A stretch of 64,000 nt of DNA from contig JAAYAL010000035.1 of the NCBI GenBank assembly GCA_012719395.1, positions 6,084 to 70,083 of the forward strand. Reading direction: 5' to 3'. Both the position numbers and the translations under genes were made by a program. Shown piece after piece: positions 12,052-64,000 of the stretch. Under the pieces are notes generated by a model. The model did no database searches, was not told where the DNA came from, and was given only the letters and a program-made list of their open reading frames with translations. Source of the stretch: Gaiellales bacterium. GTDB taxonomy: Bacteria > Actinomycetota > Thermoleophilia > RBG-16-64-13. How positions within the stretch are numbered: position 1 is the first letter of the stretch; every line of letters starts with the position of its first letter.

Positions 12052-12477
12052 ATGGGTATCCTCAGCTTGGTCGACTGCTGTAGCTGGGTCCTCATCACCG
12101 GAGGGCGTGTGCAGCCCTTCTACCACTCCGAGTACCGACAGGTTGCTACGCTGCGCAAGGTCCGCCCCGAACCTCACCTGCAGATCAACCCTGAGGCCGC
12201 GCGTGAGCTGGGCATCCCCGATGGCGAGTGCGTGTGGATAGAGACGCCGCTGGGGCGGATCACGCAAAAGGCCGCTTGCTTCCCAGGGATCGATCCCCAG
12301 GTGGTGCATGCGGAGCACACTCGGTGGTTCCCGGAGGAGGACGACGTCGAGCCCAACCTGTACGGTGTCTTTCGCTCCAACGCCAACGTCTTGGTGGACG
12401 AGGATCCGGAGATATGCAATCAGAGCAGCGGCGGCTATCCCACCCGGGGCCTGCTCTGCAAGGTCTACCGGAAGTAG
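12052..12477 (+). pseudogene. C-terminal (domain IV / Molydop_binding) fragment of a Mo/W-bisPGD oxidoreductase
   Basis: The translation MGILSL...VLITGGRVQPFYHSEY...HLQINPEAARELGIPDGECVWIETPLGRITQKAACFPGIDPQVVHAEHTRWFPE...SNANVLVDEDPEICNQSSGGYPTRGLLCKVYRK matches only the last ~140 aa of DMSO-reductase-family enzymes. The upstream ~600 aa are absent, but an ATG with a GAAAGGGAG SD is present. Confidence 0.5.
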
Positions 12478-12637
12478 CCATGAGCCGTGGCGGGTGGGGC
12501 AACGCGGGGCTGGACGTGAACGGCCGAATGCCCTCGCCGTTGGGCGTGTGTGGCAAGTGACCCTTACTGGCTGGGCTCCCGGCTTGGGAGAATAGGGTGT
12601 CAGGAAGAGCGCAGGCAGCGACAGGAGGTGGAGGGGA

Positions 12638-13438: not shown

Positions 13439-13450
13439 GGGCGACGTTGA

Positions 13451-13489
13451 GGTGAGTGAGGGGGCGCCCACCCGGCAGAACCTGCCGGG
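13451..13489 (+). terminator. Long near-perfect hairpin after heliorhodopsin
   Basis: It forms an 18-bp stem ggggcgcccacccggcag / ctgccgggcgggcgcccc (one mismatch) with an aac loop, 13 nt after the stop. Confidence 0.5.
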
Positions 13490-13595
13490 CGGGCGCCCCG
13501 CGACGTCCTGACCACCTTTTGCGCGGTTCCCAGGCGCGCATGGGCGCGCTATGGTGCACAGGGCGTTGTTGTGTTTCCCGAAGGGCGGTGGTGTG

Positions 13596-14003
13596 ATGGC
13601 TTGTCTCTCGATGATCGGCGTGGCCCGGATGGGCGTGCGCGTGGGCGACATCAACTACGGTGGCCACATGGGGAACGACAAAGCGCTGCTGGCCTTCCAT
13701 GATGCCCGACTGGCCTATCTGGAGGCGTTGGGCTTCTCCGAGGGCGATATCGGCGGCGCCGGCATCATCATGCGGGATGCCTACGTTCTCTTTCACCGGG
13801 AGGTGTGGCGGCGGGACGTGCTGGTGGTGGATGTGGGTATTGAGGACGTGAGGAATTCCTCCTTCACCATGACCTACACCGTGAGACGGGAGAGCGACGA
13901 TGAGGTGGTCTTCACGGGGCGGACCGTCCTGGTGGCCTTCGACTACGGCAGCCGCAGACCGGTGCGGGTCCCCGAGGTGTTTCGGGAGAAGATAGGGGCA
14001 TAG
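13596..14003 (+). CDS. Hotdog-fold acyl-CoA thioesterase (4HBT/YbgC-like)
   Basis: The motifs VRVGDINYGGHMGNDKALLAFHDARLAYL and FTMTYTV...VVFTGRTVLVAFDY are present. The start is uncertain: the track ORF begins at 13551, and Met codons lie at 13596, 13611 and 13629. Confidence 0.65.
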   Translation: MACLSMIGVARMGVRVGDINYGGHMGNDKALLAFHDARLAYLEALGFSEGDIGGAGIIMRDAYVLFHREVWRRDVLVVDVGIEDVRNSSFTMTYTVRRESDDEVVFTGRTVLVAFDYGSRRPVRVPEVFREKIGA

Positions 14004-14227
14004 TCAAGGGTGCCGGAGCGCTGTCCTTGCTGCCGTGGTGGCGCCCCTCACGGGGCGGGGCGCAACGAGCGCGCTTTCGCCCTTGGCCCCGCTCTGTCAG
14101 GCCGGCGGGCAGTTTGACTGTCGTTGCGTCCCTGGTTAGTCTGGAGGTGACGGTTGCTCGCGCTCGCCGTCGTCGCGGGGCGGGTGATCTTCCTCCACAT
14201 CGTCCACGCCACCGGATTGGGGGTTCC

Positions 14228-15415
14228 ATGGAAGCTCGTGATCATCGATCGGCCACGCTCCGAGGCCTGCGCGTCCGCCCGGTGCTGCTGTTGGCGCTGA
14301 CCCTGGTGCTGGTGGTGCTGATCGTGGGGCCGGCTCTGGCTTTCCCCGACGTTGCCGGCCATCCTTATGCCGAGGCCATCCAGGAGATGGCAGACCGGGG
14401 CATCGTCAACGGGTACGGCAACGGGAACTTCGGCCCTGACGGCCACGTGCTTCGCCAGCACTTCGCCAAGATGGTCTCGCTGACGCTGGATCTCCCCGCC
14501 GCCGAGTACGAGTGCTACTTCACGGACGTCGACAGGGGTCTCAGCCCCACGGATCCGCTTTTCCCCGACCGCTACATCGCCGTATGCGCGGCGTGGGGTA
14601 TCACCACCGGTGTCACGGATACCACCTTCGCGCCCTACGACAACATGAGTCGGGCGCAACTCATCACCATGGTGGCCCGGGCTGCGGAATTGCCTGATAC
14701 ACCACCCGCGTACTCGCCGCCGTTCGGCAACTTCGACAATACTCACTATCCCTGGGCGGCTCGGGCCTACCGCGCCGGCATGCTGGACGACCTGCTGGGG
14801 ATGGGGGCCGGCTACGACTTCTGGAAGCCGGCCACGCGCGCTGAGGCGTGCCAGATGCTGAGCAGTCTGCTCGCGTGGAAGGCTTCGGATCTGGTGGCAG
14901 TGATGAGGGCCCTTGAGGATTCGGGACTGATTGCCGAGGACTTCTTCGTGGAGGACTTCCTCATCACGGGTGACTGGGCGGGCGTCATCATCAGTGCTCA
15001 CGCCGTCGACACCGCCTCCGCGGGCCTGCAGCGGACGGTCGGCGGCTGGCAAGTGGTGCGCATCGGCACAGACCTGTCTTACGAGGGCTGGCTGACTCTG
15101 GGTGCGCCGGAGAACATCGCCGGTTTCCTGTCTGAGTACTCGGAGCTGGACATCATCCGCGATGTGCTGGCACAGTCTGATGCAATAGATGTGGACTTCG
15201 AGATACGTGACTCCCTGATTCTGGGCAGGTGGGCCGGGGTGGTTATCGGGAGCCCGGGACTGGACGACCTGTCGATTCTGCTGTACAAGAGTGGCTTGGT
15301 GGGCTGGGCCATCCTGGACCTGGGCACCGGGCTCTCCCAGGCGGACTGGCTGGCCTGGGAAGTGGCCGGGGAGTTCTGTCCGCTGGCCATTGCGCAATTT
15401 CTGACACCGTGCTGA
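14228..15415 (+). CDS. S-layer homology (SLH) domain protein with N-terminal TM/signal segment
   Basis: There are two SLH repeats (FPDVAGHPYAEAIQEMADRGIVNGYGNGNFGPD; YFTDVDRGL...IAVCAAWGITTGVTDTTFAPYDNMSRAQLITMVARA). The internal Met at 14228 precedes a hydrophobic stretch. The 5' part of the track ORF is Arg-rich and probably not coding. Confidence 0.7.
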   Translation: MEARDHRSATLRGLRVRPVLLLALTLVLVVLIVGPALAFPDVAGHPYAEAIQEMADRGIVNGYGNGNFGPDGHVLRQHFAKMVSLTLDLPAAEYECYFTDVDRGLSPTDPLFPDRYIAVCAAWGITTGVTDTTFAPYDNMSRAQLITMVARAAELPDTPPAYSPPFGNFDNTHYPWAARAYRAGMLDDLLGMGAGYDFWKPATRAEACQMLSSLLAWKASDLVAVMRALEDSGLIAEDFFVEDFLITGDWAGVIISAHAVDTASAGLQRTVGGWQVVRIGTDLSYEGWLTLGAPENIAGFLSEYSELDIIRDVLAQSDAIDVDFEIRDSLILGRWAGVVIGSPGLDDLSILLYKSGLVGWAILDLGTGLSQADWLAWEVAGEFCPLAIAQFLTPC

Positions 15416-49827: not shown

Positions 49828-49903
49828 GCGGAGTTAACTCAGCTGGTAGAGTGCCAGCTTCCCAAGCTGGATGTCGCGGGTTCGATCCCCGTACTCCGCT
49901 CCA
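49828..49903 (+). tRNA. tRNA-Gly (anticodon CCC)
   Basis: A cloverleaf was folded by hand. It has a 7-bp acceptor stem GCGGAGT/ACTCCGC, a D-arm ACTC/GAGT, an anticodon stem CCAGC/GCTGG with loop TTCCCAA, a T-arm GCGGG-TTCGATC-CCCGT, a discriminator T and an encoded CCA. Confidence 0.85.
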
Positions 49904-50069: not shown

Positions 50070-50366
50070 GTGGATACACAGCCTGCCGAGCATGCAAAGC
50101 AGGCGGATACTACGCAGGTCCTGCACCGTTTGCGGCGCATCGAGGGCCAGGTCCGCGGACTGCAGAGGATGATCCAGGAGGGTCAGGAGTGTGAGGCCGT
50201 GCTGACGCAACTGTCGGCCGTCAAGTCGGCTCTGGACCGGGTGGGCGTGTTCCTCATCACGCATCGCATGAGGGAGTGCCTGCAGTCGTCCGATCAGACG
50301 CTGGATGAGCGGTCCCTGGAGCAGGCTTTTGAAGTCTTTCTCCGATACTCGCAATCTTTCAGGTGA
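50070..50366 (+). CDS. CsoR/RcnR/FrmR-family metal-sensing transcriptional repressor
   Basis: LRRIEGQVRGLQRMIQEGQECEAVLTQLSAVKSALDRVGVFLITHRMRECL carries the C-H-C metal ligand pattern. Its stop overlaps the trxB start. Confidence 0.7.
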   Translation: MDTQPAEHAKQADTTQVLHRLRRIEGQVRGLQRMIQEGQECEAVLTQLSAVKSALDRVGVFLITHRMRECLQSSDQTLDERSLEQAFEVFLRYSQSFR

Positions 50367-51340
50367 CGGGGGTCACGGTGGGTGCTGAGCCGGTGGCAAC
50401 GACTGATCTGCTCATCCTTGGTGGAGGGCCGGCCGGTTTGACGGCCGCCATCTATGCTGCGCGTGCCGGTGTGAAGACATTGGTGCTGGAAAGGCAGATG
50501 ACGGGCGGGCAAATCGCGACGTCGGAGCGGGTGGAGAATTTCCCCGGCTTCCCCGATGGTGTGGGTGGCATGGAGTTGTTGGAACTCTTCAAGCAGCAGG
50601 CGCTGCATTTCGGGGCGGAGATAAGGGAGATTGAGGAGGCGGAGGACTTTGTCCCCGGCGCTCCGCACCGCGTGGTGACTGGGTCGGGTACCTACGGCGG
50701 GCATGCAGTCATCATCGCCACCGGTCTGGACCCGCAGGGGCTCGGCTGTGACGGAGAGGATCGCTTTCGGGGCCGCGGGGTCTCGTACTGTGCCACCTGT
50801 GACGGCGCGTTCTTCCGCGATCGCACGGTGGCGGTGGTGGGAGGGGGGAATTCGGCGGTGGAGGAAGCGCTTTTCCTCACACGCTTTGCCCGCAAGGTCT
50901 ATCTCATCCACAGGCGCGACAAGCTGCGCGCGGATTTCGTGTTGCAGAAGCGGGCGCTTGAGAATCCCAAGATCGAGGCCCTGTGGACCGCTCAGGTGCG
51001 TGAGGTGCGAGGCGAGGACAAGGTCGAAGCGGTCTTGGTGGATTTCGCGGATCGCCAGGAGACCCGGGAGATCCCGGTGGATGGAGTCTTCCTGTATGTG
51101 GGGCAGAGACCGAACACCGGCTTTGTCAAGGAAGTGCTACAGATGGACCAGAGCGGCTTCATCATGACCACCCACCTGCTGGCCACCAACCTGGCCGGCG
51201 TGTACGCGGCCGGCGACTGCCGGTTCAATCCCATGAAGCAGGTAGTGTGGGCCGCGGCGGAAGGAGCGCTGGCGGCGCAGCAGGCCGGCAAGTACCTGGA
51301 AGAGGCGGGGGTGTGCCGTCTCGACGTGGAGCACGACTGA
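50363..51340 (+). CDS. trxB: Thioredoxin-disulfide reductase
   Basis: The redox motif CATCDG lies in GVSYCATCDGAFFRD. FAD-binding (ILGGGPAGLTAAIYAARAG) and NADPH-binding (VVGGGNSAVEEALFL) motifs are present. Confidence 0.9.
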   Translation: MTGVTVGAEPVATTDLLILGGGPAGLTAAIYAARAGVKTLVLERQMTGGQIATSERVENFPGFPDGVGGMELLELFKQQALHFGAEIREIEEAEDFVPGAPHRVVTGSGTYGGHAVIIATGLDPQGLGCDGEDRFRGRGVSYCATCDGAFFRDRTVAVVGGGNSAVEEALFLTRFARKVYLIHRRDKLRADFVLQKRALENPKIEALWTAQVREVRGEDKVEAVLVDFADRQETREIPVDGVFLYVGQRPNTGFVKEVLQMDQSGFIMTTHLLATNLAGVYAAGDCRFNPMKQVVWAAAEGALAAQQAGKYLEEAGVCRLDVEHD

Positions 51341-51581: not shown

Positions 51582-52406
51582 TCAGGCCAGCCGCTCAGTC
51601 AGCCAGGCCAGCACCCGCCGGTGTACCAGCGGCGAGCTCTGCAGGGAGGTGTGACTGCCCTCGGGGAACAGCCAGAGGTCGGCTTCATCACCGAGCGCTG
51701 CGGCCAAGTCCAGGGAGTGTTGGAAGGGGACTCTTTCATCGCCCCGGGCATGGGCGATCAGTACGGGGTTCCTCACCATCTCGGCGTCATCCGCCAGCCG
51801 ATGGTGACGGTAGAACTCGATGAGCGCCTCGTCGTCCAGCCGGGCCTCCAACCCATCGTTGGAGCGAGTGGACCACTCATGCTTCCTCTCCATGGCCCGC
51901 AGCAGGACCTCTTCGTTGGCGGGGCACAGCACGGCCACAGCGGCGAAGTCCGCATCGACGGCTGCCCTGACACCGTAGTAGCCACCCATGCTGGATCCGC
52001 GATAGCCGATGCGGTGGGGATCGACCAGCGGGTGGGTGCGCAGCAGGTTGACCGCGGCCAGGATGTCGCATTCCAAGGGACCGTCCGCCAGTCCTCCGCT
52101 GTCCCCGTGGCCTCGGAAGTCAATGCCCAGGACGGCAAAGCCCGCGTGACAGGCGTCAAAACAGAAGCCGCGATGGCGTGCGCGACAACTGCCTGCGCCA
52201 TGTGCCACGAGGAGGCCGGGCAGACGCGCGGGGCCGGGGTGGGCGTTTGCCGGCAGAAAAAGGGTAGCAGCCAGAAGTGGGGGCCTGCCCGCGTCGTCCG
52301 GCCGGCGGCCGGCGGTGTGCCGGTGCGCTGCCAAGCTGAGAAAGCGTAGGTCCTCGCAGAAGATGTCCGGCGGGCAGGGAAGGAAGCTATGGGCCTGGGA
52401 GGTCAT
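51582..52406 (-). CDS. Alpha/beta hydrolase (dienelactone hydrolase/peptidase S9-like)
   Basis: The nucleophile elbow GSSMGG lies in IGYRGSSMGGYYGV. GIDFRGHGDSGG is present. The hydrolase fold is 274 aa. Confidence 0.65.
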   Translation of the reverse strand: MTSQAHSFLPCPPDIFCEDLRFLSLAAHRHTAGRRPDDAGRPPLLAATLFLPANAHPGPARLPGLLVAHGAGSCRARHRGFCFDACHAGFAVLGIDFRGHGDSGGLADGPLECDILAAVNLLRTHPLVDPHRIGYRGSSMGGYYGVRAAVDADFAAVAVLCPANEEVLLRAMERKHEWSTRSNDGLEARLDDEALIEFYRHHRLADDAEMVRNPVLIAHARGDERVPFQHSLDLAAALGDEADLWLFPEGSHTSLQSSPLVHRRVLAWLTERLA

Positions 52407-52939
52407 ACGTTCAACTCCGCCAGGTGGGGGAGATTGCGGTGGAGTTGGCGGTAGTCGAAGCCATAGCCCACAAAGTACGTGTCTGGAACCGTGAAGCCGC
52501 GGTAACGGACGTCAAGGTCCACCAGCCGGCGGTAGGGGCGGTCCAGCAGGGTGCAGACTTCCAGGGAGCGAGGCTGCTTGGCGGCCAAGAAGCGCAGGAT
52601 GTAGTAGAGCGTGAGGCCTGTATCAATGATGTCCTCCACCACCAACACGTCCTTGTCGAAAAGAGGCATGCCGGCGTCTTTGGTGATCTGGATGTTGGAG
52701 GCTCCGGGAACGTCGTGGTCCTGTTGGTACGAGGATATGGCGACGTAGTCCATCTCCAGAGGCAGGGAGACCGCCCGGGCCAGGTCCGCCATGAAGAAGA
52801 CGGTGCCTTTGAGCACTGAAAGGAGCAGCAGGTTCCCTCCCTCGTAGTCCTGAGTGATCTCCCGGCCCATCTCGGTCACCCGCGCGGCGATGGCCTTGCC
52901 GTCCAGGTAAACGGGGCCGATCACTCCTTGCTGAATCAT
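52403..52939 (-). CDS. hpt: Hypoxanthine phosphoribosyltransferase
   Basis: The PRPP-binding motif lies in VLVVEDIIDTGLTLYYI. A flexible-loop motif is present, and the protein is 178 aa. Confidence 0.85.
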   Translation of the reverse strand: MIQQGVIGPVYLDGKAIAARVTEMGREITQDYEGGNLLLLSVLKGTVFFMADLARAVSLPLEMDYVAISSYQQDHDVPGASNIQITKDAGMPLFDKDVLVVEDIIDTGLTLYYILRFLAAKQPRSLEVCTLLDRPYRRLVDLDVRYRGFTVPDTYFVGYGFDYRQLHRNLPHLAELNV

Positions 52940-53429: not shown

Positions 53430-54749
53430 ATGACGCATACGCTTATCTACCCTGTTCACTCGGCCCACAACACCGTGGGGCACTTGGAGATAGACGGCTG
53501 CGACGTGGTGTCACTGGCGCGGCAGTACGGTACCCCACTGGTTATCTACGAGGAGAAGACACTCCGTGACCAGTGCCGGCGGTTCGTGGAGGCGTTTCGA
53601 TTGCGCACGGCTGAATCGGAGATCATCTACGCCAGCAAGGCGTTACCGATCGTGGCCCTGTTCCAGCTGGTGGAGGAGGAGGGGCTGTCTCTGGATGTGG
53701 CGTCCGGGGGCGAGTACCACACGGCTTTGGCGGCCGGTTTTCCCACTGAACGGATTTTCTTCCACGGCAACAACAAGTCCCCCTGGGAGCTGGAGTACGC
53801 GCTGCAGCACGGCATCGGCACCGTGGTGGTGGACAGCGTGGACGAGATGGAACTGTTGGAGCGGTTGCTGCAGGTGCGTGGCGCTAGGCAGCGTGTCCTG
53901 CTGCGTATCACGCCCGGCATCGAGGCTCACACGCACGAGTACATCCAGACCGGGCAGATTGACTCCAAATTCGGCTTCGGCTTGGCGGGGGGAGCGGCGT
54001 TGGAATCCATCGGCCGGGCCATGGGCTCACCGTCGCTGGATCTGTGGGGTCTCCATGCGCACATTGGCAGTCAAATCTTCGAGCTGGATTCCTATCGGGG
54101 TGAGATTCGTGTGCTGGCGGACCTGATGCGGGAAGCGAAGGATCGCTTTGGCTTCGATTGCCGCTGGCTCAACGCGGGTGGCGGCTTGGGCGTACGCTAC
54201 ACGCCTGATGATTCGCCCGCCCCCATAGACTCCTACGCGGAGGTGGTCTGTCGCGGTGTGGAGGAGGAGATGGCTCGGGTGGGGCTGCCAATGCCGCGGA
54301 TCCTCATTGAGCCGGGGCGCTCGGTGGTGGCCAAAGCGGGAGTGACGGCGTACACCATCGGAACGGTCAAGCAACTACCGGGCATCCGCACCTACGTCAG
54401 CGTCGACGGCGGCATGAGCGACAATATTCGGCCCATGTTGTACGGGGCCAAGTACGAGGCCATGCTTGCCAACAAGGTGGAGCAGCAGCCGGACACCATG
54501 GTGACGGTGGCAGGCAAGCACTGCGAGAGCTCCGATATCCTGGCGCGGGATGTGGAGCTGCCTTCGCCGCAAGTGGGTGACACGCTGGTGATTCCGGCCA
54601 CGGGTGCCTACTGCTATGCCATGGCCTCCAACTACAACGGGAACCTGCGTCCCGCCGTGGTGATGGTGGAGGACGGGAAGGCCCGTATCATCGTCGAGAG
54701 GGAGAGCTTTGAGGACCTGGTGAAACGTCAGCGTCCTCTGCATGGATAG
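53430..54749 (+). CDS. lysA: Diaminopimelate decarboxylase
   Basis: The translation has a fold-III PLP decarboxylase layout (YASKALPIVALFQLVEEEGLSLDVASGGEY; HIGSQI; EPGRSVVA; CESSD). Confidence 0.9.
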   Translation: MTHTLIYPVHSAHNTVGHLEIDGCDVVSLARQYGTPLVIYEEKTLRDQCRRFVEAFRLRTAESEIIYASKALPIVALFQLVEEEGLSLDVASGGEYHTALAAGFPTERIFFHGNNKSPWELEYALQHGIGTVVVDSVDEMELLERLLQVRGARQRVLLRITPGIEAHTHEYIQTGQIDSKFGFGLAGGAALESIGRAMGSPSLDLWGLHAHIGSQIFELDSYRGEIRVLADLMREAKDRFGFDCRWLNAGGGLGVRYTPDDSPAPIDSYAEVVCRGVEEEMARVGLPMPRILIEPGRSVVAKAGVTAYTIGTVKQLPGIRTYVSVDGGMSDNIRPMLYGAKYEAMLANKVEQQPDTMVTVAGKHCESSDILARDVELPSPQVGDTLVIPATGAYCYAMASNYNGNLRPAVVMVEDGKARIIVERESFEDLVKRQRPLHG

Positions 54750-56043
54750 GATCCAGAGGAGCGTGCCGACTGTGGAGAAGGTGAAGATCGGACTGCTGGG
54801 GTACGGCGTGGTGGGCTCGAGCGTGTACCGCCTGCTCACCAAGGAGCGTGTTCGCATCCTGGAGGGCACGGGTGTGGACCTGGAGGTCACCCGCATCGCG
54901 GAGATGGATACCACCAAGCACGGTGCGGACGCCCCGGCCTCTCTCTTCACCACCGATGGCTCGGCTGTGGTGGAGGACCCGAGCATCGATGTGGTGGTGG
55001 AGCTGTTCGGCGGCGTGGATGCCGCCTTTGAGCTGATCAGCTGCGCCCTGCGGAACGGCAAGAACGTGGTCACCGCCAACAAGCAACTGCTGGCCAATCG
55101 GGGGGCGGCCCTCTTCGAGTTGGCACGGGAGAAGGGGCGCCAGATCCGGTTTGAGGCGTCGGTAGGGGGTGCCATCCCGATCATCAAGGTGATGCGGGAG
55201 AGTATGTTTGCGGCGGAACTCCACACCGTGTACGGCATCGTGAACGGCACCACCAACTACATCCTCACGGCCATGCTCCGGGGAGAAGGAGACTACGCGG
55301 CAACGCTGGCCCGCGCCCAGGAATTGGGCTACGCAGAGGCGGATCCCACCGCGGATGTGAACGGTGCCGACGCGGCCGCCAAAATGGCCATCCTGGCCTC
55401 CATCGCCTTCCATTCGCGCGTCACGCTGCAGGACGTGACCTTCGAAGGGATCGCCTCCATCCAGCCCGAGGACATCGCCTATGCGCGAGACCTGGGTTTC
55501 GTGATCAAGCTGGTGGGCTCAGCGCGTCTGCTGGATGAGCAGGTCAACGTGCGTGTGGCTCCCACTCTGGTACCGGCCGGGCACCCGCTGGCCGGCATCA
55601 ATGGCTCCTACAACGCGGTGCTGCTGGTGGGCCACGCCATCGATGAGATCATGCTGTCCGGCCCCGGCGCCGGCGGCCTGCAGACATCAACCGCCGTCAT
55701 CAGCGATATCGTCTCCATCGTCAGCACCAAGACCACCGGTTTCATGCAGAACTGCTCCTGTTACCGCGCGCTGCCGCTGCTGGCGGAGGAGGAGATGCGC
55801 TCCGCCTTCTTCATACGCGTGCGGGTGGAGGACCGGCCGGGGGTGCTGGCGCAGCTGGCCTCCATCTTCGGCGAGCGGGACGTCTCCATCGAGAGTCTTA
55901 TCCAAAAGGGCCACGGGGACCAGGCGGAGCTGGTCCTCATCACGCATCCTTCGCCGGAGAAGGACTTCCGTGCCGCCCTGGAGGCCATTGCCGGGTTGAG
56001 CAGCGTGCGCAGCCGGCCCATGACAATCCGTGTATTGGGGTAG
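54742..56043 (+). CDS. hom: Homoserine dehydrogenase with C-terminal ACT domain
   Basis: It has a Rossmann motif IGLLGYGVVGS, a catalytic region, and an ACT-like C-terminus (FFIRVRVEDRPGVLAQLASIFGERDVSIESL). It overlaps the lysA end by 8 nt. Confidence 0.9.
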   Translation: MDRIQRSVPTVEKVKIGLLGYGVVGSSVYRLLTKERVRILEGTGVDLEVTRIAEMDTTKHGADAPASLFTTDGSAVVEDPSIDVVVELFGGVDAAFELISCALRNGKNVVTANKQLLANRGAALFELAREKGRQIRFEASVGGAIPIIKVMRESMFAAELHTVYGIVNGTTNYILTAMLRGEGDYAATLARAQELGYAEADPTADVNGADAAAKMAILASIAFHSRVTLQDVTFEGIASIQPEDIAYARDLGFVIKLVGSARLLDEQVNVRVAPTLVPAGHPLAGINGSYNAVLLVGHAIDEIMLSGPGAGGLQTSTAVISDIVSIVSTKTTGFMQNCSCYRALPLLAEEEMRSAFFIRVRVEDRPGVLAQLASIFGERDVSIESLIQKGHGDQAELVLITHPSPEKDFRAALEAIAGLSSVRSRPMTIRVLG

Positions 56044-56066: not shown

Positions 56067-57401
56067 ATGGGATGTCCCGTGTTGTGTGTCATCAAGGAGG
56101 TCAAGAAGCAGATGTGCAGTGACGCCGTGTTCAATCCTTTCGTCGTGGCCCAGCGACAGTTCGATCGAGTAGCCGACCTGCTGGAGCTGGACGAGGCTAC
56201 CAGAGCCCTGTTGCGGGAGCCCATGCGTGAGTACCATGTCAGTATCCCCGTGCGCATGGATGACGGCCGGGTGAAGGTGTTTCGCGGCTTCCGCTGTCAG
56301 CACAATGATGCGCTGGGACCCAGCAAGGGCGGCATACGCTTCCACCCGCAGGAGACGGTGGACACCATCAGGGCGCTGTCTATGTGGATGACGTGGAAAT
56401 GTGCTGTGGTTGGCATCCCCTTGGGAGGGGCCAAAGGCGGCGTTATCTGTGACCCTCACGACCTGAGTGCCCGGGAGCAGGAAGGTATCTGCCGTGGCTG
56501 GGTGCGGCAACTGGCCAAGGTGGTGGGACCGCTCGCCGATGTGCCGGCGCCGGACGTGATGACCAATGCCGAGCACATGCTGTGGATGCTTGACGAGTAT
56601 GAGGCCATCCATGGGGGTCGCTTTCCCGGGTTCATCACCGGTAAACCGGTGGGGATGGGTGGCTCGCTGGGCCGTACGGAGGCCACCGGCTACGGGCTCA
56701 TCTTCACGGTGCGGGAAGCCCTCAAGGAAATGGGCATGGACATCGCTGAGACCACAGCCAGCGTGCAGGGTTTCGGCAACGTGGCCCAGTATGCCGTTGA
56801 GCTTTACCAAATGATGGGGGGCAAGGTCACGGCCATCTCCTGCTGGGACCAGGTGGCCTGCACTCCCTTCGCCTACCGCAAGACGGCCGGTGTGGACCTG
56901 GGGGAGTTGCGTGGTGTCACCGATCGTTTCGGCGGGATAGACCAGGAGAAGGCCGCGGCGCTTGGCTACGAGCCCATCCCGGGCGAGAAGTGGCTGGAGC
57001 AGGACGTGGACATCCTGATCCCGGCTGCCATGGAGAACCAGATCACGGCGGAAGCCGTGGGTCGCATCTCCGGCCGCGTGAAGCTGATTGCCGAAGGGGC
57101 CAATGGGCCCACGGCTCCCGAGGCCGATCCGCTCCTGGTTGAGCGGGGCATCGTGAATATCCCGGACTTCCTGGCCAACGCCGGTGGAGTCACCTGCAGC
57201 TACTTTGAGCAGGTCCAGAGCAACATGAACTTCTACTGGCCGCGAGATGAGGTCCTGGGGCGGCTGGACACCAAGATGACCGACGCCTTCCTGGCGGTCA
57301 GCGAGTTGGCGCGGAGGCGCAACCTGTCATTGCGTGACGCGGCGTACGTCATCGCCGTGGATCGAGTGGCAAAGGCCAGCAAGGACCGTGGCTGGGTCTG
57401 A
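56067..57401 (+). CDS. gdhA: Glutamate dehydrogenase (Glu/Leu/Phe/Val dehydrogenase family)
   Basis: The catalytic Lys region GPSKGGIRFHPQ is present, together with GIPLGGAKGGV and the NAD(P) motif QGFGNVAQ. A possible alternative start lies at Met 56114. Confidence 0.85.
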   Translation: MGCPVLCVIKEVKKQMCSDAVFNPFVVAQRQFDRVADLLELDEATRALLREPMREYHVSIPVRMDDGRVKVFRGFRCQHNDALGPSKGGIRFHPQETVDTIRALSMWMTWKCAVVGIPLGGAKGGVICDPHDLSAREQEGICRGWVRQLAKVVGPLADVPAPDVMTNAEHMLWMLDEYEAIHGGRFPGFITGKPVGMGGSLGRTEATGYGLIFTVREALKEMGMDIAETTASVQGFGNVAQYAVELYQMMGGKVTAISCWDQVACTPFAYRKTAGVDLGELRGVTDRFGGIDQEKAAALGYEPIPGEKWLEQDVDILIPAAMENQITAEAVGRISGRVKLIAEGANGPTAPEADPLLVERGIVNIPDFLANAGGVTCSYFEQVQSNMNFYWPRDEVLGRLDTKMTDAFLAVSELARRRNLSLRDAAYVIAVDRVAKASKDRGWV

Positions 57402-59142
57402 CAAGGAGCACCGGGGGCTGTTCCCCCCGTTCGATCGTCGCTTCTTTGAGAGTGACGCCACATTCACGCGCGTAGGTACCGGAGTGCTCGGGGGCAAGGC
57501 CGAAGGCCTTGCCTTCGTGCATGCGGAGGTCATCTCCCTGCTTAGCGGCGGCTGCCCGAACGGTGTTGAGGTGTCCGTTCCTCGGATGATGGTCATTGCC
57601 TCCGACATGTTTGACGCCTTCATGCAGCGCAACCGCCTGGAGGAGTCGGCCGCCGACGGTGCGCCGGATGAGCGGGTGGCTCACGCGTTCATGCAGGGTG
57701 AGCTTCCGGCCGAGATGCTGGGTGACCTGCAGGCGCTGGTGGAATCGGTACGTTCACCCTTGGCTGTGCGCTCCTCTTCGCTGCTGGAAGACGCACTCGC
57801 GCATCCTTTCGCCGGTGTCTACGGGACCAAGATGATCCCCAATCACCAGCCGGCGGCCTCCGACCGTTTCGCCAAGCTGACGGAGGCGGTCAAGTTCGTG
57901 TACGCCTCTACCTACTTCTCGGCGGCCAAGGCGTATCGTCAGGGTCTGAGGATACCGGAGGGTCAGGAGAAGATGGCCGTCATTGTGCAGGAGGTCATAG
58001 GGGAACGGCACGGGTCGCGCTTCTACCCGGAGGTCTCGGGGGTGGCCCGCTCTTACAGCTACTACCCACTCCCCGGCGCGCGGTCGGAGGAAGGGATGGT
58101 GAGCTTGGCGCTGGGTTTGGGTAAGACCGTGGTCGACGGTGGGACCTGCTGGACGTACACGCCGTCTCGCCCTTCCGCGCCGCCGCCTGTGGGTTCGGGC
58201 CGGGCGCTGCTCGACGCAACACAGACGAACTTCTGGGCGGTCAACATGGGGGCGGCTCCATACGATCCTGCACGGGAGACGGAATACCTGTTCCAGCCCT
58301 CTCTTCAGGAGGCGGAAGGCGACGGCACACTGCTCCACCTGGCATCCACGTATGATGCGGTCTCGGACCGGGTGAGGCCGGGAATCGGCCGGCCGGGCCC
58401 GCGGGTCCTCAACTTCGGGCCCATGCTGGAGCTGAGCACGATTCCTCTCAACGACTGCGTGAGGGCCATGCTCGCCTGCTCGCGGGAGAGGCTGGGTTGC
58501 GAGGTGGAGGTGGAGTTCGCCGCTTGTCTGGCCGGGCGCCGGCGGGAGACCACCAAACTGGGGTTCCTGCAGTTGCGTCCCATGGCCTCTCCCGGTTCCT
58601 ACGTGACGGTGGACGTGGAGGACCTGTGGGGCGACGAAGTGCTGCTGGCCTCCGAGCGCTGCCTGGGCAACGCTGTGGTGAGCGACATCCGCGATGTGGT
58701 GTATGTGAAGCCCGGCAGCTTCGATGCGGGCAAGACCGGGAGGATTGCGCAGGAAGTGGGAGCGATGAACCGGGCTTTGCTGGCGGAGGGAAGGAAGTAC
58801 GTGCTCATAGGCTTCGGTCGCTGGGGGACGTCGGACCCCTGGCTGGGCATCCCCGTGGAATGGGGACAGATCTCAGGGGCGGGTGTGCTGGTTGAGGCGG
58901 CGCTGGACACCATGCAGCCGGAGATGAGCCAGGGTTCCCACTTCTTCCACAATCTCGTCAGCACCCACACGCTGTTCTTCTCCGTGCCACTGGGCGCCGG
59001 TCCGCAGGTGGACTGGCAGTGGCTCAAGCGGCAGGAAGTGGTGCGGGAATCGGACCATGTCCGGCATGTGCGGGCCGCAACTCCCCTGTCCGCCCATGTC
59101 GATGGCAGAAGCGGCCGGGGAGTGGTCATGCACCATGGCTAG
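57334..59142 (+). CDS. PEP/pyruvate-binding (PPDK_N / PEP synthase N-terminal ATP-grasp-like) domain protein, paralog 1
   Basis: The motifs VGTGVLGGKAEGL and AVRSSSLLEDALAHPFAGVYGT match PPDK_N motifs (GGKAANL; AVRSSAT.ED...SFAGQ). A conserved C-terminal block is present: GFGRWGTSDP...SQGSHFFHNLV. There is no PEP-utilizer C-domain. The start is ambiguous: no ATG/GTG/TTG lies between the gdhA stop and the GGK motif, and CTG ~57418 is preceded by AAGGAG. Confidence 0.65.
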   Translation: MTRRTSSPWIEWQRPARTVAGSDKEHRGLFPPFDRRFFESDATFTRVGTGVLGGKAEGLAFVHAEVISLLSGGCPNGVEVSVPRMMVIASDMFDAFMQRNRLEESAADGAPDERVAHAFMQGELPAEMLGDLQALVESVRSPLAVRSSSLLEDALAHPFAGVYGTKMIPNHQPAASDRFAKLTEAVKFVYASTYFSAAKAYRQGLRIPEGQEKMAVIVQEVIGERHGSRFYPEVSGVARSYSYYPLPGARSEEGMVSLALGLGKTVVDGGTCWTYTPSRPSAPPPVGSGRALLDATQTNFWAVNMGAAPYDPARETEYLFQPSLQEAEGDGTLLHLASTYDAVSDRVRPGIGRPGPRVLNFGPMLELSTIPLNDCVRAMLACSRERLGCEVEVEFAACLAGRRRETTKLGFLQLRPMASPGSYVTVDVEDLWGDEVLLASERCLGNAVVSDIRDVVYVKPGSFDAGKTGRIAQEVGAMNRALLAEGRKYVLIGFGRWGTSDPWLGIPVEWGQISGAGVLVEAALDTMQPEMSQGSHFFHNLVSTHTLFFSVPLGAGPQVDWQWLKRQEVVRESDHVRHVRAATPLSAHVDGRSGRGVVMHHG

Positions 59143-61897
59143 GCCTCCGTCCGAGGGTCGTAACGGAGAGCGCCGTGCACGTGCGCGGCGCGCATCGCCC
59201 GCCAAGAGAGTCATGCGCTCCCTGCAGGAACGTGCCAAGGAGCTCAACTGTCTCTATCGGGTGGAGGAGGTACTGAGCAAGCCGGACCTGCCGGTGGAGA
59301 AGGCTCTGCAGGAGATCATCGAGGCTCTGCCGGCCGGGCTGCAGTACCCGGAGCCCTCGCAGGCTCTGATCCGTTTGGACAGTCGGGAGTACAGCTCCTC
59401 GGGCTACGGCGTGAGCCCCTGGCGCGTGGCGGTTCCTCTGCGGCGTGGGCGCGAGGTGGTGGGCGAGATTGAGGTCTCGTACTCGCAGCAGGTGCCCCAG
59501 GCCGACAGCGGGCCGTTCCTGCGGGAAGAGGTGCGCCTGGTCAACGCCATCGCCGACAGGCTGGGCATCTACCTGGAGAGGCGTGCTCCGGGGCCGGCCT
59601 CTGAACAGTGGAGAGGCGCGATCAACCTTCTGCGGGAGGCGGACCGTGATCTCTTCGTTCGTGTGGCGCGGCGCATGATCCGTCATCTGTACTGGGTGAA
59701 CGTGGAGGATGCCCGCGAGGTGCTCGAGCGCACCGGGCACCGGCAGGTCTCGGACGCCGAGGGAGCAGGATGGTCTGAGAACCGGCCGGAGGAGAAGGCC
59801 ACCTGGGACGACGCCTACTACATGACCAATGCGCCCTTTGATCTGGCTGCACGTCACCTGAGCGGCGATGAGATCCTTCACCTGGTGCAGACCTGGATGG
59901 CGGAGGAGAGGTCCAGCCTGTTGGCCAAGATCGTCAGCAACCGGCAGACCTCGATCGTGGATATCACCCGGGCCTTACGACGGTACAAAGAGCAGATGCC
60001 GGATGAGGGCCGTCTGCCCGCCGTTGCCCAGAAGGGCACGGTGGTGTCGTTGATCCGGCGCTTTCTCAGTGAAGACCTGGAGTTCATTGGCAAGGCCAAG
60101 AGGAATCTGAAGGCCACCGACTTCCTGGAAATCACCGAGAAGACCGTGTACTCGCGGGAGAGCCGGGGGAGGATCGGGGGCAAGAGCACGGGACTCTTCC
60201 TGGCCGGCAGGATCATGGGGCCCAACCAGCACCTGCTGCAGGGCGATTTCGAGATCAAGGTGCCCAACTCTTGGTATGTTGCTTCCGAGAGCATCGTGGA
60301 GTTCATGGAGCACAACGACCTCCATGACTGGACGCTGGAACAGAAGTACAAGGACTCCGACCGTATCCGGCGCGAGTACCCCATACTGGTGCAGTTGTTC
60401 AAACACTCCCAGTTTCCCCCCGACCTGGTCACCGGCCTGTCCATGGCGCTGGATGATTTTCAGAACCGACCCATCATCGCGCGCAGCTCCAGCCTGGGAG
60501 AGGACAGGCAGGGCACCGCTTTCTCCGGCAAGTACAAGAGCCTCTTCTTGGCCAACCAGGGGTCCAAGAAGGTCCGTCTGGATGCGCTGCTGGATGCCAT
60601 TGCCGAGATCTACGCCTCTATCTTCGGCCCCGATCCTATCGAGTACCGGCGCGAGCGAGGTCTCCTCGACTTCGACGAGGAGATGGGGATTCTGCTGCAG
60701 GAGGTGGTCGGCACCCGCGTGGGGCATTACTACTTCCCTACCTTCTCCGGGGTGGCTTTCACCAACAACGAGTTCAGTTGGTCGCCGCGTATCGCGCGCA
60801 GCGATGGGTTGCTGCGACTGGTGCCCGGGCTTGGGACCAGGGCGGTGGACAGGGTGGGCGATGACTATCCTGTCCTCATCGCGCCCGGCAAACCCGGGTT
60901 GCGCGCCAACGCATCGCTGGACGAGAAAATCAAATATGCACCGCGCATGATCGATGTCATGGATCTGGAAGTGGGATCCTTCAAGACGCTCTCACTGGAA
61001 GGGCTGTTGAAGGAGGAGGGCCTTTCCTATCCCGACTTCCGACTGGTGTTCTCCACGCTACAGCGTGACCGGTTGGTACCGCCGTCGCCGGTGCTGGCGG
61101 ATCCGCGTCGGGAGAATATGGTTGCCACTTTCGAGGGGTTGCTGGGCAGCACCACTTTCGTGAAGCAGATCTCCACGCTGATGCGGTTGCTGGAGGAGGG
61201 TCTGGAGTCGGCGGTTGACGTGGAGTTCGCGTGTGAGGGGCGCAGTCTCTATGTGCTGCAGTGTCGCGCGCAGAGCTACGCGGCCAACGAGGCGCCGGCG
61301 CCCATCCCCTCCGACATCGCAGAGGCGGACGTCCTCTTTCGAGGCCACAAGCACATCAGCAACGGCACGCTCCCCGATATCCGCTACGTGGTGTACGTGG
61401 ATCCGCTCGCCTATGCCGGCCTGGCAAGCTTGGCGGAGCTCAAGGCGGTGGGTGAGGCCGTGGGCCGGCTCAACCAAACGCTGCCGCACCGTCGCTTCAT
61501 CCTCATGGGCCCCGGTCGCTGGGGGAGCCGGGGCGACATCAAACTAGGGGTCAGCGTCACCTACTCCGACATCAACAACACCGCCATGCTCGTGGAGATC
61601 GCCCGCCGGAAGGCCGGTTACTCCCCCGACCTCTCCTTCGGCACCCATTTCTTCCAGGATCTGGTGGAGTCATCCATTCGCTACCTCCCCCTCTACCCGG
61701 ATGAGGACCAAGGTGTGCTGAACGAGCGGCTGCTGCTGGAGGCGCCCAACCAACTCGCCACCTTCGCGTCGGCATTCGCGGCGCTGGGACGCGTGGTGCG
61801 GGTGGTCGACATTGCCGAAGTCACGGGGGGAGGGCGGCTGCGGGTGGCCATGAATGGAGAGCGGCAGGAGGCACTGGGCTACCTGGTGCGCGTTTGA
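59135..61897 (+). CDS. PEP/pyruvate-binding (PPDK_N-like) domain protein, paralog 2, with ~400-aa N-terminal extension
   Basis: The motifs GRIGGKSTGLF and IIARSSSLGEDRQGTAFSGKY are present. The C-terminal block GPGRWGSRGD...SFGTHFFQDLV is paralogous to the upstream gene. The ATG at 59135 overlaps the upstream stop (ATGGCTAG). The track ORF starts at 59057. Confidence 0.65.
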   Translation: MARPPSEGRNGERRARARRASPAKRVMRSLQERAKELNCLYRVEEVLSKPDLPVEKALQEIIEALPAGLQYPEPSQALIRLDSREYSSSGYGVSPWRVAVPLRRGREVVGEIEVSYSQQVPQADSGPFLREEVRLVNAIADRLGIYLERRAPGPASEQWRGAINLLREADRDLFVRVARRMIRHLYWVNVEDAREVLERTGHRQVSDAEGAGWSENRPEEKATWDDAYYMTNAPFDLAARHLSGDEILHLVQTWMAEERSSLLAKIVSNRQTSIVDITRALRRYKEQMPDEGRLPAVAQKGTVVSLIRRFLSEDLEFIGKAKRNLKATDFLEITEKTVYSRESRGRIGGKSTGLFLAGRIMGPNQHLLQGDFEIKVPNSWYVASESIVEFMEHNDLHDWTLEQKYKDSDRIRREYPILVQLFKHSQFPPDLVTGLSMALDDFQNRPIIARSSSLGEDRQGTAFSGKYKSLFLANQGSKKVRLDALLDAIAEIYASIFGPDPIEYRRERGLLDFDEEMGILLQEVVGTRVGHYYFPTFSGVAFTNNEFSWSPRIARSDGLLRLVPGLGTRAVDRVGDDYPVLIAPGKPGLRANASLDEKIKYAPRMIDVMDLEVGSFKTLSLEGLLKEEGLSYPDFRLVFSTLQRDRLVPPSPVLADPRRENMVATFEGLLGSTTFVKQISTLMRLLEEGLESAVDVEFACEGRSLYVLQCRAQSYAANEAPAPIPSDIAEADVLFRGHKHISNGTLPDIRYVVYVDPLAYAGLASLAELKAVGEAVGRLNQTLPHRRFILMGPGRWGSRGDIKLGVSVTYSDINNTAMLVEIARRKAGYSPDLSFGTHFFQDLVESSIRYLPLYPDEDQGVLNERLLLEAPNQLATFASAFAALGRVVRVVDIAEVTGGGRLRVAMNGERQEALGYLVRV

Positions 61898-62057
61898 AGC
61901 CCCGGTCCTGGAGCAAGGGTCCGCATGGCGGTCGCTTTCGCACGGGCGGGCAGTCGTGCTATAGCTTGAAAGAGAGGGTCGGGCGGCAGAGCCGGGCTCT
62001 CGTGCTCGTCCCACGCATCCACCGGTCCTGACAAGTCAGTGCGGCAGGGGAGGGCGT

Positions 62058-63482
62058 ATGAGTCAGCACAGGCCGAGGGCCGTGGCCCTCATTGACGGCG
62101 AACACTATCCGGATGTGGTGGCTCAATCTCTGCGGAGCCTGAGTGATCGCTACCAGATGGTGGCGGCGGTATTCCTGGGAGGTACGGAGAAGATCCGGGG
62201 AACGGACCTGGGGGCGGTGGCGCAGGAACTGTACGGCCTCCCCGTGGTGATTGGAGCCGAACCGTTGGCGGCAATGGAGCAGGCCCTGTCGCAGTACGAA
62301 CCGGACTGTGTCGTTGACGTCAGCGACGAGCCGGTGGTAGGATACGCAGAGCGGTTCCGGTACGCCAGCTTCGCGCTTGCCCGGGGCGTCGCCTATTTGG
62401 GTTCTGACTTCCGCTTCTCACCCCCGCTATTTGAGCACCTCGCGTCGGCGCCCTCGCTTTCCATCATTGGAACGGCGAAACGGGTGGGTAAGACGGCCCT
62501 GAGCGGGTATGTCGCGCGTGTGCTGCAACGAGAGCTGTTCGGTGGGGAAGGTTCGGGACGAGGGGTCGTCATTGTGCCCATGGGTCGAGGTGGCCCGGTG
62601 GAGCCTGAGACCATCGACGGCCTGCAGCGCCAGATATCATCCCGTGAACTGCTGGCCTGGAGCAGGCAAGGTCGCCACGCGGCTTCGGATCACTTTGAAG
62701 ACGCGGTGCTCAGCCGAGTGACCACGGTAGGGTGCCGGCGTTGCGGCGGGGGTCTGGCCGGGCAGGTCTTTGTGAGCAATGTGGCGCAGGGTGTGCGGGT
62801 AGCGAACCGGCTGGATCCGGGTCTGTTGATTGTGGAGGGGAGTGGGAGCGCCATTCCGCCGGTGTATGCGGACGCGCGCATATGCCTGGCTGGGGCGCAC
62901 CAACCGTTGGAGTATGTCGTGGGCTACTTCGGGACCTACCGGCTCCTGGTGAGCGACGCGGTGGTGGTGGCCATGGCGGAGGAGCCTCTGGCCTCCAAGG
63001 AGAAGGTGGAGAGACTTATTGAAGGCATCCGGGAATTGAAGCCCAACATGCCGGTGGTGCCGGTGGTGTTCCGGCCACGGCCGTTGGAGGATGTGCGCGG
63101 CCGCCGGGTGGCGCTGTTCTCCACCACCCCGCCGTCCATGGAATGGGTGGTGCGCCGGCACCTGGAGGCAGAGTATGGCTGCAGCGTGCGCCTGTTCTCA
63201 CCCAATCTCTCTCGCCGCCCTCTGCTGAAGCAGGACCTGGAACGGCAGGAGATGGAGGAGGTGGACGTGGTCTTGACGGAGATCAAGGCTGCGGCCATTG
63301 ACGTGGTGGCGGAGGCGGCGGACTCCAGGGGGCGGCCGGTGGTCTTCGTAGACAACGATCCGGTGGAGGTGGCGCCGGCGCAGCCGGGAGACCTGGTGGC
63401 CATGTGCGTGCAGGCGGCAGCCACGGCCCAAGCACGATTCGCCGCGGGTGCGGGTCGCCATGATGGCGGGTGGGCGCAATGA
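62058..63482 (+). CDS. Cyclic 2,3-diphosphoglycerate synthetase-like protein (P-loop)
   Basis: It is 474 aa with the Walker A motif IIGTAKRVGKTA. Its size and P-loop resemble archaeal cDPGS (~460 aa). Its stop overlaps the start of a 2-phosphoglycerate-kinase-like gene (ATGA), giving archaeal cpgS/pgk2-like pairing. This is called from memory of the family and context, not from a database search. Confidence 0.55.
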   Translation: MSQHRPRAVALIDGEHYPDVVAQSLRSLSDRYQMVAAVFLGGTEKIRGTDLGAVAQELYGLPVVIGAEPLAAMEQALSQYEPDCVVDVSDEPVVGYAERFRYASFALARGVAYLGSDFRFSPPLFEHLASAPSLSIIGTAKRVGKTALSGYVARVLQRELFGGEGSGRGVVIVPMGRGGPVEPETIDGLQRQISSRELLAWSRQGRHAASDHFEDAVLSRVTTVGCRRCGGGLAGQVFVSNVAQGVRVANRLDPGLLIVEGSGSAIPPVYADARICLAGAHQPLEYVVGYFGTYRLLVSDAVVVAMAEEPLASKEKVERLIEGIRELKPNMPVVPVVFRPRPLEDVRGRRVALFSTTPPSMEWVVRRHLEAEYGCSVRLFSPNLSRRPLLKQDLERQEMEEVDVVLTEIKAAAIDVVAEAADSRGRPVVFVDNDPVEVAPAQPGDLVAMCVQAAATAQARFAAGAGRHDGGWAQ

Positions 63483-64000
63483 GCTCCTCCGGCGGCTCAC
63501 CACCTGTGGTCGGCTCCTTCTCTCACGGCTTCCCGGAACACATCCGGATTGTGAGCCAGGAGCACTCGCTCCCGTTCTCCAAAGGCATTCTCTCCGAATC
63601 GCTCACGGCCACCGGCCTCCCGCCGCAGCGCGCCTATGCCGTGGCGCAGTTGGTGGAAGGGAGTCTTCGCCGGAGGGAATCGCTGGAGATAGCCCTGGAT
63701 GACCTGCGGAGCCTGGTGATGGCCAGTCTGGCCGAGAATGAGGAGCCGCTCTTTGTTGATCGGTACCAGAAGTGGCAGGAATTGACCGCATCCAACAGGC
63801 CTCTCATCATCGTGATAGGCGGTGCCACCGGAGTGGGCAAGAGCACGCTGGCCTCGCAGGTAGCGGCTCGGCTGGGCATTGTCCGGCTCATCTCCACCGA
63901 CACCATCCGCCAGGTGATGCGCGCTTTCTTCTCCTCCACACTCATGCCTTCCATCCATTGCTCTTCCTTCGATGCCGAGAAGGCGGTGCGCGTGCCGTTG
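63479..64000 (+). CDS. 2-phosphoglycerate kinase-like protein (ATP-cone + P-loop kinase), 3'-truncated by window edge
   Basis: The N-terminus has an ATP-cone-like segment (IRIVSQEHSLPFSKGILSESLTATGLPPQRAYAVAQLVEGSL). This is followed by IIVIGGATGVGKSTLASQVAARLGIVRLISTDTIRQVMR, which resembles the 2PGK P-loop and STD.IRE motif. Confidence 0.6.
   Translation, partial: MSSSGGSPPVVGSFSHGFPEHIRIVSQEHSLPFSKGILSESLTATGLPPQRAYAVAQLVEGSLRRRESLEIALDDLRSLVMASLAENEEPLFVDRYQKWQELTASNRPLIIVIGGATGVGKSTLASQVAARLGIVRLISTDTIRQVMRAFFSSTLMPSIHCSSFDAEKAVRVPL

Follow-up and report, generated by a model that had tools for sequence, protein, structure and literature searches.

A conserved gene unit of glutamate dehydrogenase and two paralogous ATP-grasp proteins with an unnamed, histidine-bearing C-terminal domain

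Gene organisation and protein domains

A unit of three genes was analysed in a 64,000 nt stretch of DNA (the window) from a Gaiellales bacterium (Actinomycetota; Thermoleophilia; GenBank assembly GCA_012719395.1, contig JAAYAL010000035.1, positions 6,084 to 70,083 of the forward strand). It consists of a gene for glutamate dehydrogenase (GDH), followed by genes for two proteins, A and B, each of which carries an ATP-grasp domain of the PPDK_N type and a family-specific C-terminal domain (C-domain). Coordinates are collected in Table 1. The GDH was identified by using Pfam (PF02812, E 4e-54; PF00208, E 2e-67), and its closest entry in the PDB is the GDH 1euz (E 5e-121). Its start lies probably a few codons inside the open reading frame (ORF), near 56112. 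For A, agreement with the N termini of homologues makes the GTG at 57388, not 57334, the most likely start; the resulting protein of 584 aa is identical to database protein P0121, and the GTG overlaps the GDH stop by 14 nt. B most likely starts, judging from homologue N termini and the DNA, at the ATG at 59135 and not at 59057, which gives 920 aa; this ATG lies in an 8-nt overlap with the stop of A (ATGGCTAG), and an identical overlap is found in the orthologous loci L001 and L005. In the window, GDH, A and B form one translationally coupled message. Scans for promoters and terminators in this part of the window found no signal above chance. An initial annotation had placed A and B at 57334-61897; the two ORFs are real, and both starts had probably been set too far upstream.

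PF01326 (PPDK_N) was matched by A with 113 bits (E 2e-32) and by B with 171 bits (E 6e-50), the cutoff being 27. Pfam found neither the swivel domain PF00391 nor the phosphoenolpyruvate (PEP)/pyruvate-binding TIM barrel PF02896 in A or B, as the initial annotation had held for the latter, and beyond PPDK_N it gave just a sub-threshold GAF match at the N terminus of B (19.5 bits; cutoff 22.4). BLASTP aligned A with B at E 5e-34 (26 % identity over 535 aa, C-terminal block included), by which the tandem ORFs are, as first supposed, true paralogues. The ATP-grasp motifs of A are GGK (aa 35-37), RSSS..ED (aa 128-135), VEVEF (aa 373-377) and LQLR (aa 394-397); those of B are GGK (aa 348), RSSS..EDR (aa 450-458), VEFA (aa 696) and LQCR (aa 708). 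In alignments GGK, RSS..ED, E.EF and LQ.R are invariant across both families, and the PPDK mutants K22A and R337A in the PDB point to the GGK lysine and the LQ.R arginine as functional.

The AlphaFold model of B (pLDDT 84) has four parts: a GAF-like domain (residues 1-124), a helical linker (129-310), the ATP-grasp domain (320-686) and the C-domain (700-894). These residues refer to an 894-aa gene call starting at nt 59213; adding 26 gives the numbering of the 920-aa protein. With the start of B at 59135, its extra N-terminal region, correctly noticed at the outset, comes to ~310-345 aa and not to ~400 aa. In Foldseek searches the ATP-grasp domain of B was closest to rifampin phosphotransferase (RPH; 5hv3, E 3.5e-14), with a TMt of 0.73-0.76 for the isolated ATP-binding domain 5hv6; the next matches were Neisseria PEP synthase 2ols and HpeI 9goj, E 6e-9. 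The NCBIfam models of PEP synthase (PEPS), PPDK, RPH and the prodigiosin ligase PigC/RedH gave 13-60 bits against cutoffs of 456-1350, in partial matches that span ~150-200 residues of the ATP-grasp part only. The best PEPS model reached 50-60 bits (cutoffs 598-883), and the RPH model NF041857 reached 24.5 and 30.7 bits (cutoff 999), each on the ATP-grasp part.

The common C-terminal block, which had been recognised initially together with its conserved histidine, reads GFGRWGT...SQGSHFFHNLV in A and GPGRWGS...SFGTHFFQDLV in B in the BLASTP alignment. In A, GFGRWG is encoded at nt 58810-58827 and His518, within SQGSHFFHN, at nt 58939-58941; in B, GPGRWG is encoded at nt 61508-61525 and His838, within SFGTHFFQD, at nt 61646-61648. 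GxGRWG and S[QF]G[ST]HFF are near-invariant in the family, and A and B also fit S[QF]G[STA]H[FL]F[HQ][ND]. The histidine is near-invariant in 147 C-domain segments of family representatives, with one arginine exception among the 40 commonest variants listed, and this near-invariance marks it as functionally important.

Isolated C-domains had no match in Pfam even at E<=10. A profile search of all PDB sequences with the C-domain returned no PEPS, PPDK, Enzyme I (EI) or RPH; its best matches, longin/VAMP7 and IL-2R, have E>0.6 and are noise. Comparison by hhalign with a swivel-domain profile, built from two sequences found in the loci and three others, gave a probability of 0.2 %. With an AlphaFold model at pLDDT 90, Foldseek found for the C-domain nothing in the PDB better than E 0.01 or TM 0.28, and dikinases were absent among the 50 matches listed. 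The idea that the block is a degenerate swivel domain was therefore abandoned, Pfam, PDB profile, hhalign and Foldseek all being negative. The C-domain is without a recognisable fold relative and replaces the canonical swivel and substrate-binding domains. It is found in 2313 representative clusters (profile search of 1.84 billion representatives; ~2300 at 50 % identity). PPDK_N directly precedes it in 10/10 differently sized representatives that were checked with Pfam, and some members of the family carry weak REC-like or DUF5752 N-terminal regions.

The N-terminal model of B was matched to GAF structures by Foldseek with a probability of 1.0 (E 0.03-0.15, TMt 0.3-0.5; 3p01_B, TMt 0.52). The GAF-like domain, which is marked by LQERAKELNCLY, has homologues at 34-36 % identity elsewhere in the loci L005 and L030. 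In L005 (4057..5733, segment 4678..5109) the homologue sits inside a TetR_N/TetR_C and HisKA_3/HATPase_c sensor kinase, which supports a sensor role for the N terminus of B; the second homologue is found at L030 5448..5813. From these relatives the domain appears to be a mobile sensor module. No family match was obtained for the helical linker that follows it.

Occurrence of the unit across bacteria

When one genome per GTDB species was scanned with an alignment of A, at least 585 confirmed matches were obtained. Loci were counted among the best 80 of these, which were fetched with flanks of up to 10 kb around A; the upstream flank reached 1.5 kb or more in 73 loci, and 73 had enough flank for the downstream count. 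In 64/73 loci a GDH gene immediately precedes A on the same strand, and in three more it is nearby or divergent; B directly follows A in 71/73. The initial annotation had thus overlooked the conserved partner, the upstream GDH. The GDHs of the loci are 66-78 % identical to that of the window, and the orthologues of A are 48-67 % identical across phyla. Homologues of A and B run into thousands (45-67 % identity, many phyla), and the same contigs recur in both match lists. The matches span more than ten phyla and include Acidobacteriota, Gemmatimonadota, Ignavibacteriota (including Melioribacter), Calditrichota, Zixibacteria, Eisenbacteria, Latescibacterota, Planctomycetota, Bacteroidota, Anaerolineales (Chloroflexota), Alphaproteobacteria, Myxococcota and Actinomycetota. 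The order ELFV-type dehydrogenase, A, B was also found in Myxococcota, Thermoleophilia and other metagenomic contigs, where the downstream genes vary. The window has the gene order of the family, namely GDH, A (~580 aa) and B (~900-1060 aa) with overlapping or closely spaced genes. In an 87 %-identical relative (L086, GCA_032942435.1; 1059..4129) GDH and A are each split by the gene caller; the splits probably reflect frameshifts or errors of assembly and not true pseudogenes.

Most B orthologues end in a minimal nucleotidyltransferase (NTase) domain of ~110 aa (PF01909) with a weak match to 1wot. A gene for a ~282-aa metallophosphoesterase (PF00149) is convergent after B in 50 loci, for example at L053 11078..11926 (-) and L002 14962..15834 (-). 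When loci were counted in L006-L085, the metallophosphoesterase occurred solely where B bears the NTase domain: both were present in 50 loci, the NTase domain alone in nine, the metallophosphoesterase alone in none, and neither in ten (Fisher p 3e-7). The two resemble a write/erase or synthase/hydrolase pair, and no NCBIfam or PDB relative names the substrate of the metallophosphoesterase. The window has neither the NTase domain of B nor the metallophosphoesterase, as is also the case for L005, L086 and L087, and is therefore a minimal version of the family. PADLOC gave no match for A or B, and only the NTase domain of an orthologue was matched (PDC-S09); a role in anti-phage defence was rejected for want of a match to A or B.

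In fusion proteins of ~1500-1650 aa an A-like module is joined to the N terminus of B. The fusions, together with a domain swap in locus L097, where the A-type partner has a long N-terminal extension, the B-type partner lacks the GAF domain and the genes overlap by 8 nt, suggest that A and B act together. The giant proteins P0011-P0021, P0361, P0362 and P0422 (~1480-1654 aa) combine the A-like module with B and its NTase domain; the giant fusion of L002 is encoded at 10001..14965. The Polyangia loci L002 and L003 keep a separate A gene beside the fusion, which makes three ATP-grasp plus C-domain modules per locus. The ~1650-aa proteins were for this reason not taken as plain A+B fusions that replace A; since a separate A persists, they are A'-B fusions. 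In L098 a GAF-less B-type protein is convergent with a GDH of the window type.

Other subfamilies of PPDK_N plus C-domain proteins adjoin a second class of GDH, an NADP-GDH (NF006929, 768 bits; cutoff 536) that is only 31-34 % identical to the GDH of the window. This linkage was found in L017, L029, L032, L054, L065, L078, L088, L089 and L091, and it indicates that the association is with GDH as such. L091 has, in addition, a gene with a GltB-like Glu_synthase domain nearby, as well as a small Lrp/AsnC-like ORF. The loci listed for the second set of PPDK_N plus C-domain proteins, which stands beside an NADP-type GDH of ~450 aa, also include L047; the set comprises A-like proteins of ~580 aa at 36-44 % identity and proteins of ~720-1040 aa with weak REC-like/DUF5752 N termini. 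There is good support for the view that A and B belong, as its two ATP-grasp subunits, to a single module functionally tied to GDH. Full-text literature searching found no description of a GDH-A-B operon or of DUF5752.

Genomic surroundings in the window

The ORF downstream of B belongs to the cyclic 2,3-diphosphoglycerate (cDPG) synthetase family (cpgS; PF27272), and a translationally coupled P-loop 2PGK-like ORF comes next. The compound cDPG itself is known above all from methanogens. The initial annotation had taken the co-directional, adjacent genes to share a phosphotransfer function with A and B and had expected cpgS to accompany the pair in other genomes. The adjacency is real in the window; no cpgS homologue was found in any of the 80 best species loci (0/80), and B was seen next to cpgS only in the lineage of the window (L004) and in the 87 %-identical relative; in a 69 % relative the adjacency is missing. 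The gap between B and cpgS is 160 nt, whereas GDH/A and A/B overlap. A syntenic relative, whose cpgS is 65 % identical, has the backbone trxB-like, hpt, lysA, hom, metallophosphoesterase, cpgS, 2PGK-like, glpX and rho without GDH-A-B. The backbone of the window shares 57-71 % amino-acid identity with that of this relative and has GDH-A-B between hom and cpgS. Because the backbone occurs without the cassette and the adjacency is lineage-restricted, GDH-A-B is seen as a cassette of three genes that was added next to an older block with cpgS; its link to cpgS/2PGK is accidental and specific to the lineage.

In relatives (L086, L092-L096) the cpgS/2PGK pair is followed by glpX (FBPase) and rho, and in L092-L096 cpgS is directly preceded by a coupled gene for a 300-aa metallophosphoesterase. 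The metallophosphoesterase found before cpgS in the syntenic relative was considered as the B-linked enzyme and rejected, the hidden Markov model giving no match. Homologues of cpgS are very numerous, mostly in Thermoleophilia and other Actinobacteria, and this widespread actinobacterial cpgS/2PGK pair merits separate attention. On the other side of the unit, the gap between hom and the GDH ORF is just 23 nt, so that GDH-A-B may be read through from a lysA-hom operon. The sole RNA gene found by using ARAGORN and Rfam in the 64-kb window is a tRNA-Gly(CCC) at 49828..49903 (+).

Table 1. Features of the GDH-A-B unit and of the neighbouring genes in the window.
Feature	Position	Strand	Description	Evidence
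GDH gene	56067..57401	+	hexameric, Thermococcus/Pyrococcus-like; first gene of GDH-A-B unit	PF02812, PF00208, PDB 1euz
Paralogue A, 584 aa	57388..59142	+	PPDK_N ATP-grasp and family-specific C-domain	Pfam, homologue N termini
A ATP-grasp (PPDK_N) domain	57484..58587	+		Pfam match, motifs, invariant columns
A C-domain	58585..59139	+	~185 aa, alpha/beta	alignment; AlphaFold model, pLDDT 90
Paralogue B, 920 aa	59135..61897	+	GAF-like sensor, helical linker, PPDK_N ATP-grasp, C-domain	
B GAF-like N-terminal domain	59213..59584	+	putative sensor with LQERAKELNCLY motif	Foldseek, sub-threshold Pfam GAF
B linker	59597..60142	+	all-helical	AlphaFold model secondary structure
B ATP-grasp (PPDK_N) domain	60170..61315	+		Pfam, motifs, Foldseek
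B C-domain	61310..61894	+		BLASTP with A, alignment, motifs
Spacer, 160 nt	61898..62057	.	end of GDH-A-B cassette	gap between B and cpgS
cpgS-family ORF	62058..63482		downstream of B, co-directional	PF27272 (CpgS_N)
P-loop 2PGK-like ORF	63479..64000, continues past window end		4-nt overlap with cpgS	
Thioredoxin-reductase-like gene	50363..51340			syntenic with relative L092 (Thermoleophilia-type)
Alpha/beta hydrolase	51582..52406	-		syntenic with L092
hpt	52403..52939	-		syntenic with L092
lysA / DAP decarboxylase	53430..54749			syntenic with L092
Homoserine dehydrogenase (hom)	54742..56043			syntenic with L092

Possible function and comparison with known systems

Domain anatomy, conserved catalytic residues in the ATP-grasp domains, the order and coupling of the genes, co-variation and fusions were all observed directly, and on this basis it is tentatively proposed that A and B form a sensor-controlled, ATP-dependent phosphotransfer module that acts on GDH or on a GDH-bound ligand. 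This is the likeliest reading, held with rather less than even confidence, in which we infer phosphotransfer through the histidine, GDH as the target and a regulatory purpose. The ATP-grasp domains would bind and cleave ATP, and a phosphoryl or pyrophosphoryl group would pass to the invariant histidine of the S[QF]G[ST]HFF loop of the C-domain, which, by analogy, might serve as phosphocarrier. From there the group would be transferred to GDH itself or to its bound ligand, and GDH activity would be switched at the carbon/nitrogen branch point. The GAF-like domain of B would tune the activity to a metabolite signal, and the state of GDH would thereby follow the supply of nitrogen, carbon or energy. 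In most lineages, though not in the window, the NTase domain of B and the co-varying metallophosphoesterase would add a second write/erase layer. The GAF-like domain, the weak REC-like matches and the co-variation of NTase and metallophosphoesterase lend the system a regulatory flavour.

Several points weigh against this proposal. The C-domain has no detectable homology to the swivel domain, and the putative carrier role of its histidine is argued from invariance and analogy. The REC-like matches in the other subfamilies lie below the Pfam thresholds and found no confirmation in the PDB. Two GDH classes at ~32 % identity fit a link through a shared metabolite at least as well as recognition of the protein, and translational coupling suits an enzyme complex equally well as a regulator. 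Full-text literature searching found no biochemical data on A or B, and no characterised enzyme of the PPDK_N family is known to phosphorylate a protein.

In the main rival explanation, less probable than the proposal above, A and B together would act as a kinase or dikinase on small molecules and phosphorylate a substrate or product of GDH, for example by carbonyl or enol activation of 2-oxoglutarate for ATP-driven amination or by phosphorylating a glutamate-derived compound; the C-domain would then bind the substrate, which GDH would supply or use up. Every characterised relative (PEPS, RPH, PigC/RedH, HpeI) acts on small molecules or glucans by O-phosphorylation, the two divergent linked GDH classes have only their reaction in common, translation is coupled with that of GDH, and the dense invariant residues of the C-domain suggest an active site. 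Known substrate domains are, however, missing (PF02896, a RIF-binding domain and an HpeH-like component are all absent), and sensor-type N termini and an NTase/metallophosphoesterase pair are more typical of signalling; nor is any pathway known in which a phosphorylated form of 2-oxoglutarate or glutamate would be required as an intermediate beside GDH. It is distinctly unlikely that A and B are a non-catalytic, nucleotide-binding sensor of energy charge, sitting as allosteric or scaffold subunits on GDH hexamers without phosphotransfer. The very high full-length conservation across phyla (45-58 %) and the coupled translation would fit an obligate complex, and the C-domain is without a known catalytic fold, but the invariant catalytic residues of the ATP-grasp domain, the histidine and GxGRWG argue for chemistry and not for binding alone.

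The two remaining explanations are effectively excluded. That A and B work with cpgS and the 2PGK-like protein on the cDPG pathway or a related substrate would suit the co-directional, adjacent genes of the window and of the 87 %-identical relative, the true PF27272 membership of the downstream ORF and the P-loop ORF behind it; the idea founders on the 0/80 count, on the absence of cpgS after B in the 69 % relative, on the cpgS-2PGK-glpX-rho block that stands on the same backbone without GDH-A-B, and on the 160-nt spacer. Least probable of all is that A and B are an ordinary PEP synthase, PPDK or rifamycin-type phosphotransferase that was mis-split or truncated. Although PPDK_N, the partial NCBIfam matches to PEPS and RPH and the best structural match to RPH point in that direction, the scores against the equivalog cutoffs are 60 versus 883 bits and 31 versus 999 bits, neither PF00391 nor PF02896 nor a RIF-binding domain is present, and thousands of homologues preserve the same full-length form, so that A and B are not truncations.

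GDH stands where carbon and nitrogen metabolism meet, and bacteria that feed on amino acids and proteins rely on it as their main route of deamination; its tie to two ATP-grasp proteins would point to an undescribed way of controlling or energising it. A bolder possibility, which we consider improbable though worth stating, is an unrecognised system that makes GDH ATP-dependent, either as a histidine-based protein dikinase that switches GDH or as a carbonyl-activating dikinase that acts on 2-oxoglutarate. In the former version the unit would be a GlnE-like layer for GDH, with the NTase domain and the metallophosphoesterase as a second write/erase pair. In the latter, phosphorylation at or near the active site of GDH would permit amination at low ammonium, an ATP-driven route alongside GS-GOGAT. 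Either version would amount to a new control point of nitrogen metabolism in more than ten bacterial phyla with a novel fold of the C-terminal domain. Irrespective of function, a large unnamed family of C-terminal domains has been defined that has an invariant histidine and no recognisable fold relative, and database labels such as 'PEP/pyruvate-binding domain protein', 'pyruvate, water dikinase' and 'nucleotidyltransferase' mislead metabolic reconstruction from metagenomes.

By their ATP-grasp domain A and B are assigned to the PEPS/PPDK/RPH superfamily. With PEPS and PPDK they share the homologous N-terminal ATP-grasp domain (PF01326), in which the GGK lysine and the LQxR glutamine and arginine are conserved, and the [ST]-His dipeptide at a helix start in A and B recalls the T-S-H motif of those enzymes. 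The PF00391 swivel (GG-x-T-S-H-AA) and the PF02896 barrel are, in contrast, replaced in A and B by one unrelated domain of ~185 aa, and A and B are two paralogous subunits linked to GDH, with a sensor and, in orthologues, an NTase domain. RPH (PDB 5hv1/5hv3/5fbs) offers the closest solved ATP-grasp domain and a similar order, with the ATP-grasp domain first and the His-bearing domain last; A and B differ from it in having neither a RIF-binding domain nor a PF00391 swivel, and no context of antibiotic resistance.

Two regulatory systems offer functional analogies. PtsP (Enzyme I-Ntr), a member of the PEP-utilizer superfamily, combines a GAF domain with PEP-dependent phosphotransfer through histidine and is tied to nitrogen status by sensing of glutamine and 2-oxoglutarate. 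It recalls B, with its GAF-like N terminus and its proposed phosphotransfer, and the link of the unit to nitrogen metabolism; it differs in that it uses PEP, has a swivel and a TIM barrel and no ATP-grasp domain, and phosphorylates NPr, not GDH. The relationship in sequence to B that was seen is limited to the GAF-like fold. GlnE and GlnD are Pol-beta-type nucleotidyltransferases that exert covalent write/erase control over glutamine synthetase, a central enzyme of ammonium assimilation, and PII, to which the NTase domain of most B orthologues and its co-varying phosphoesterase may be likened; the NTase domain of the B orthologues is, however, minimal (~110 aa, PF01909) and is absent from the B of the window.

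Phenylphosphate synthase is one example of a two-component small-molecule dikinase. In another, the split dikinase HpeHI of Rhodococcus, HpeI is the ATP-grasp component and a homologue of RPH, and HpeH carries the swivel histidine and the substrate site (PMC12167813). In the unit, too, a putative activity of the dikinase family would be divided between the products of two adjacent genes, and HpeI is a structural match to B. HpeHI differs in its aromatic catabolism, the context of A and B being GDH, and in its division of labour, since both A and B consist of an ATP-grasp domain and the same novel C-domain and neither has a swivel. HpeHI is the nearest known split dikinase.

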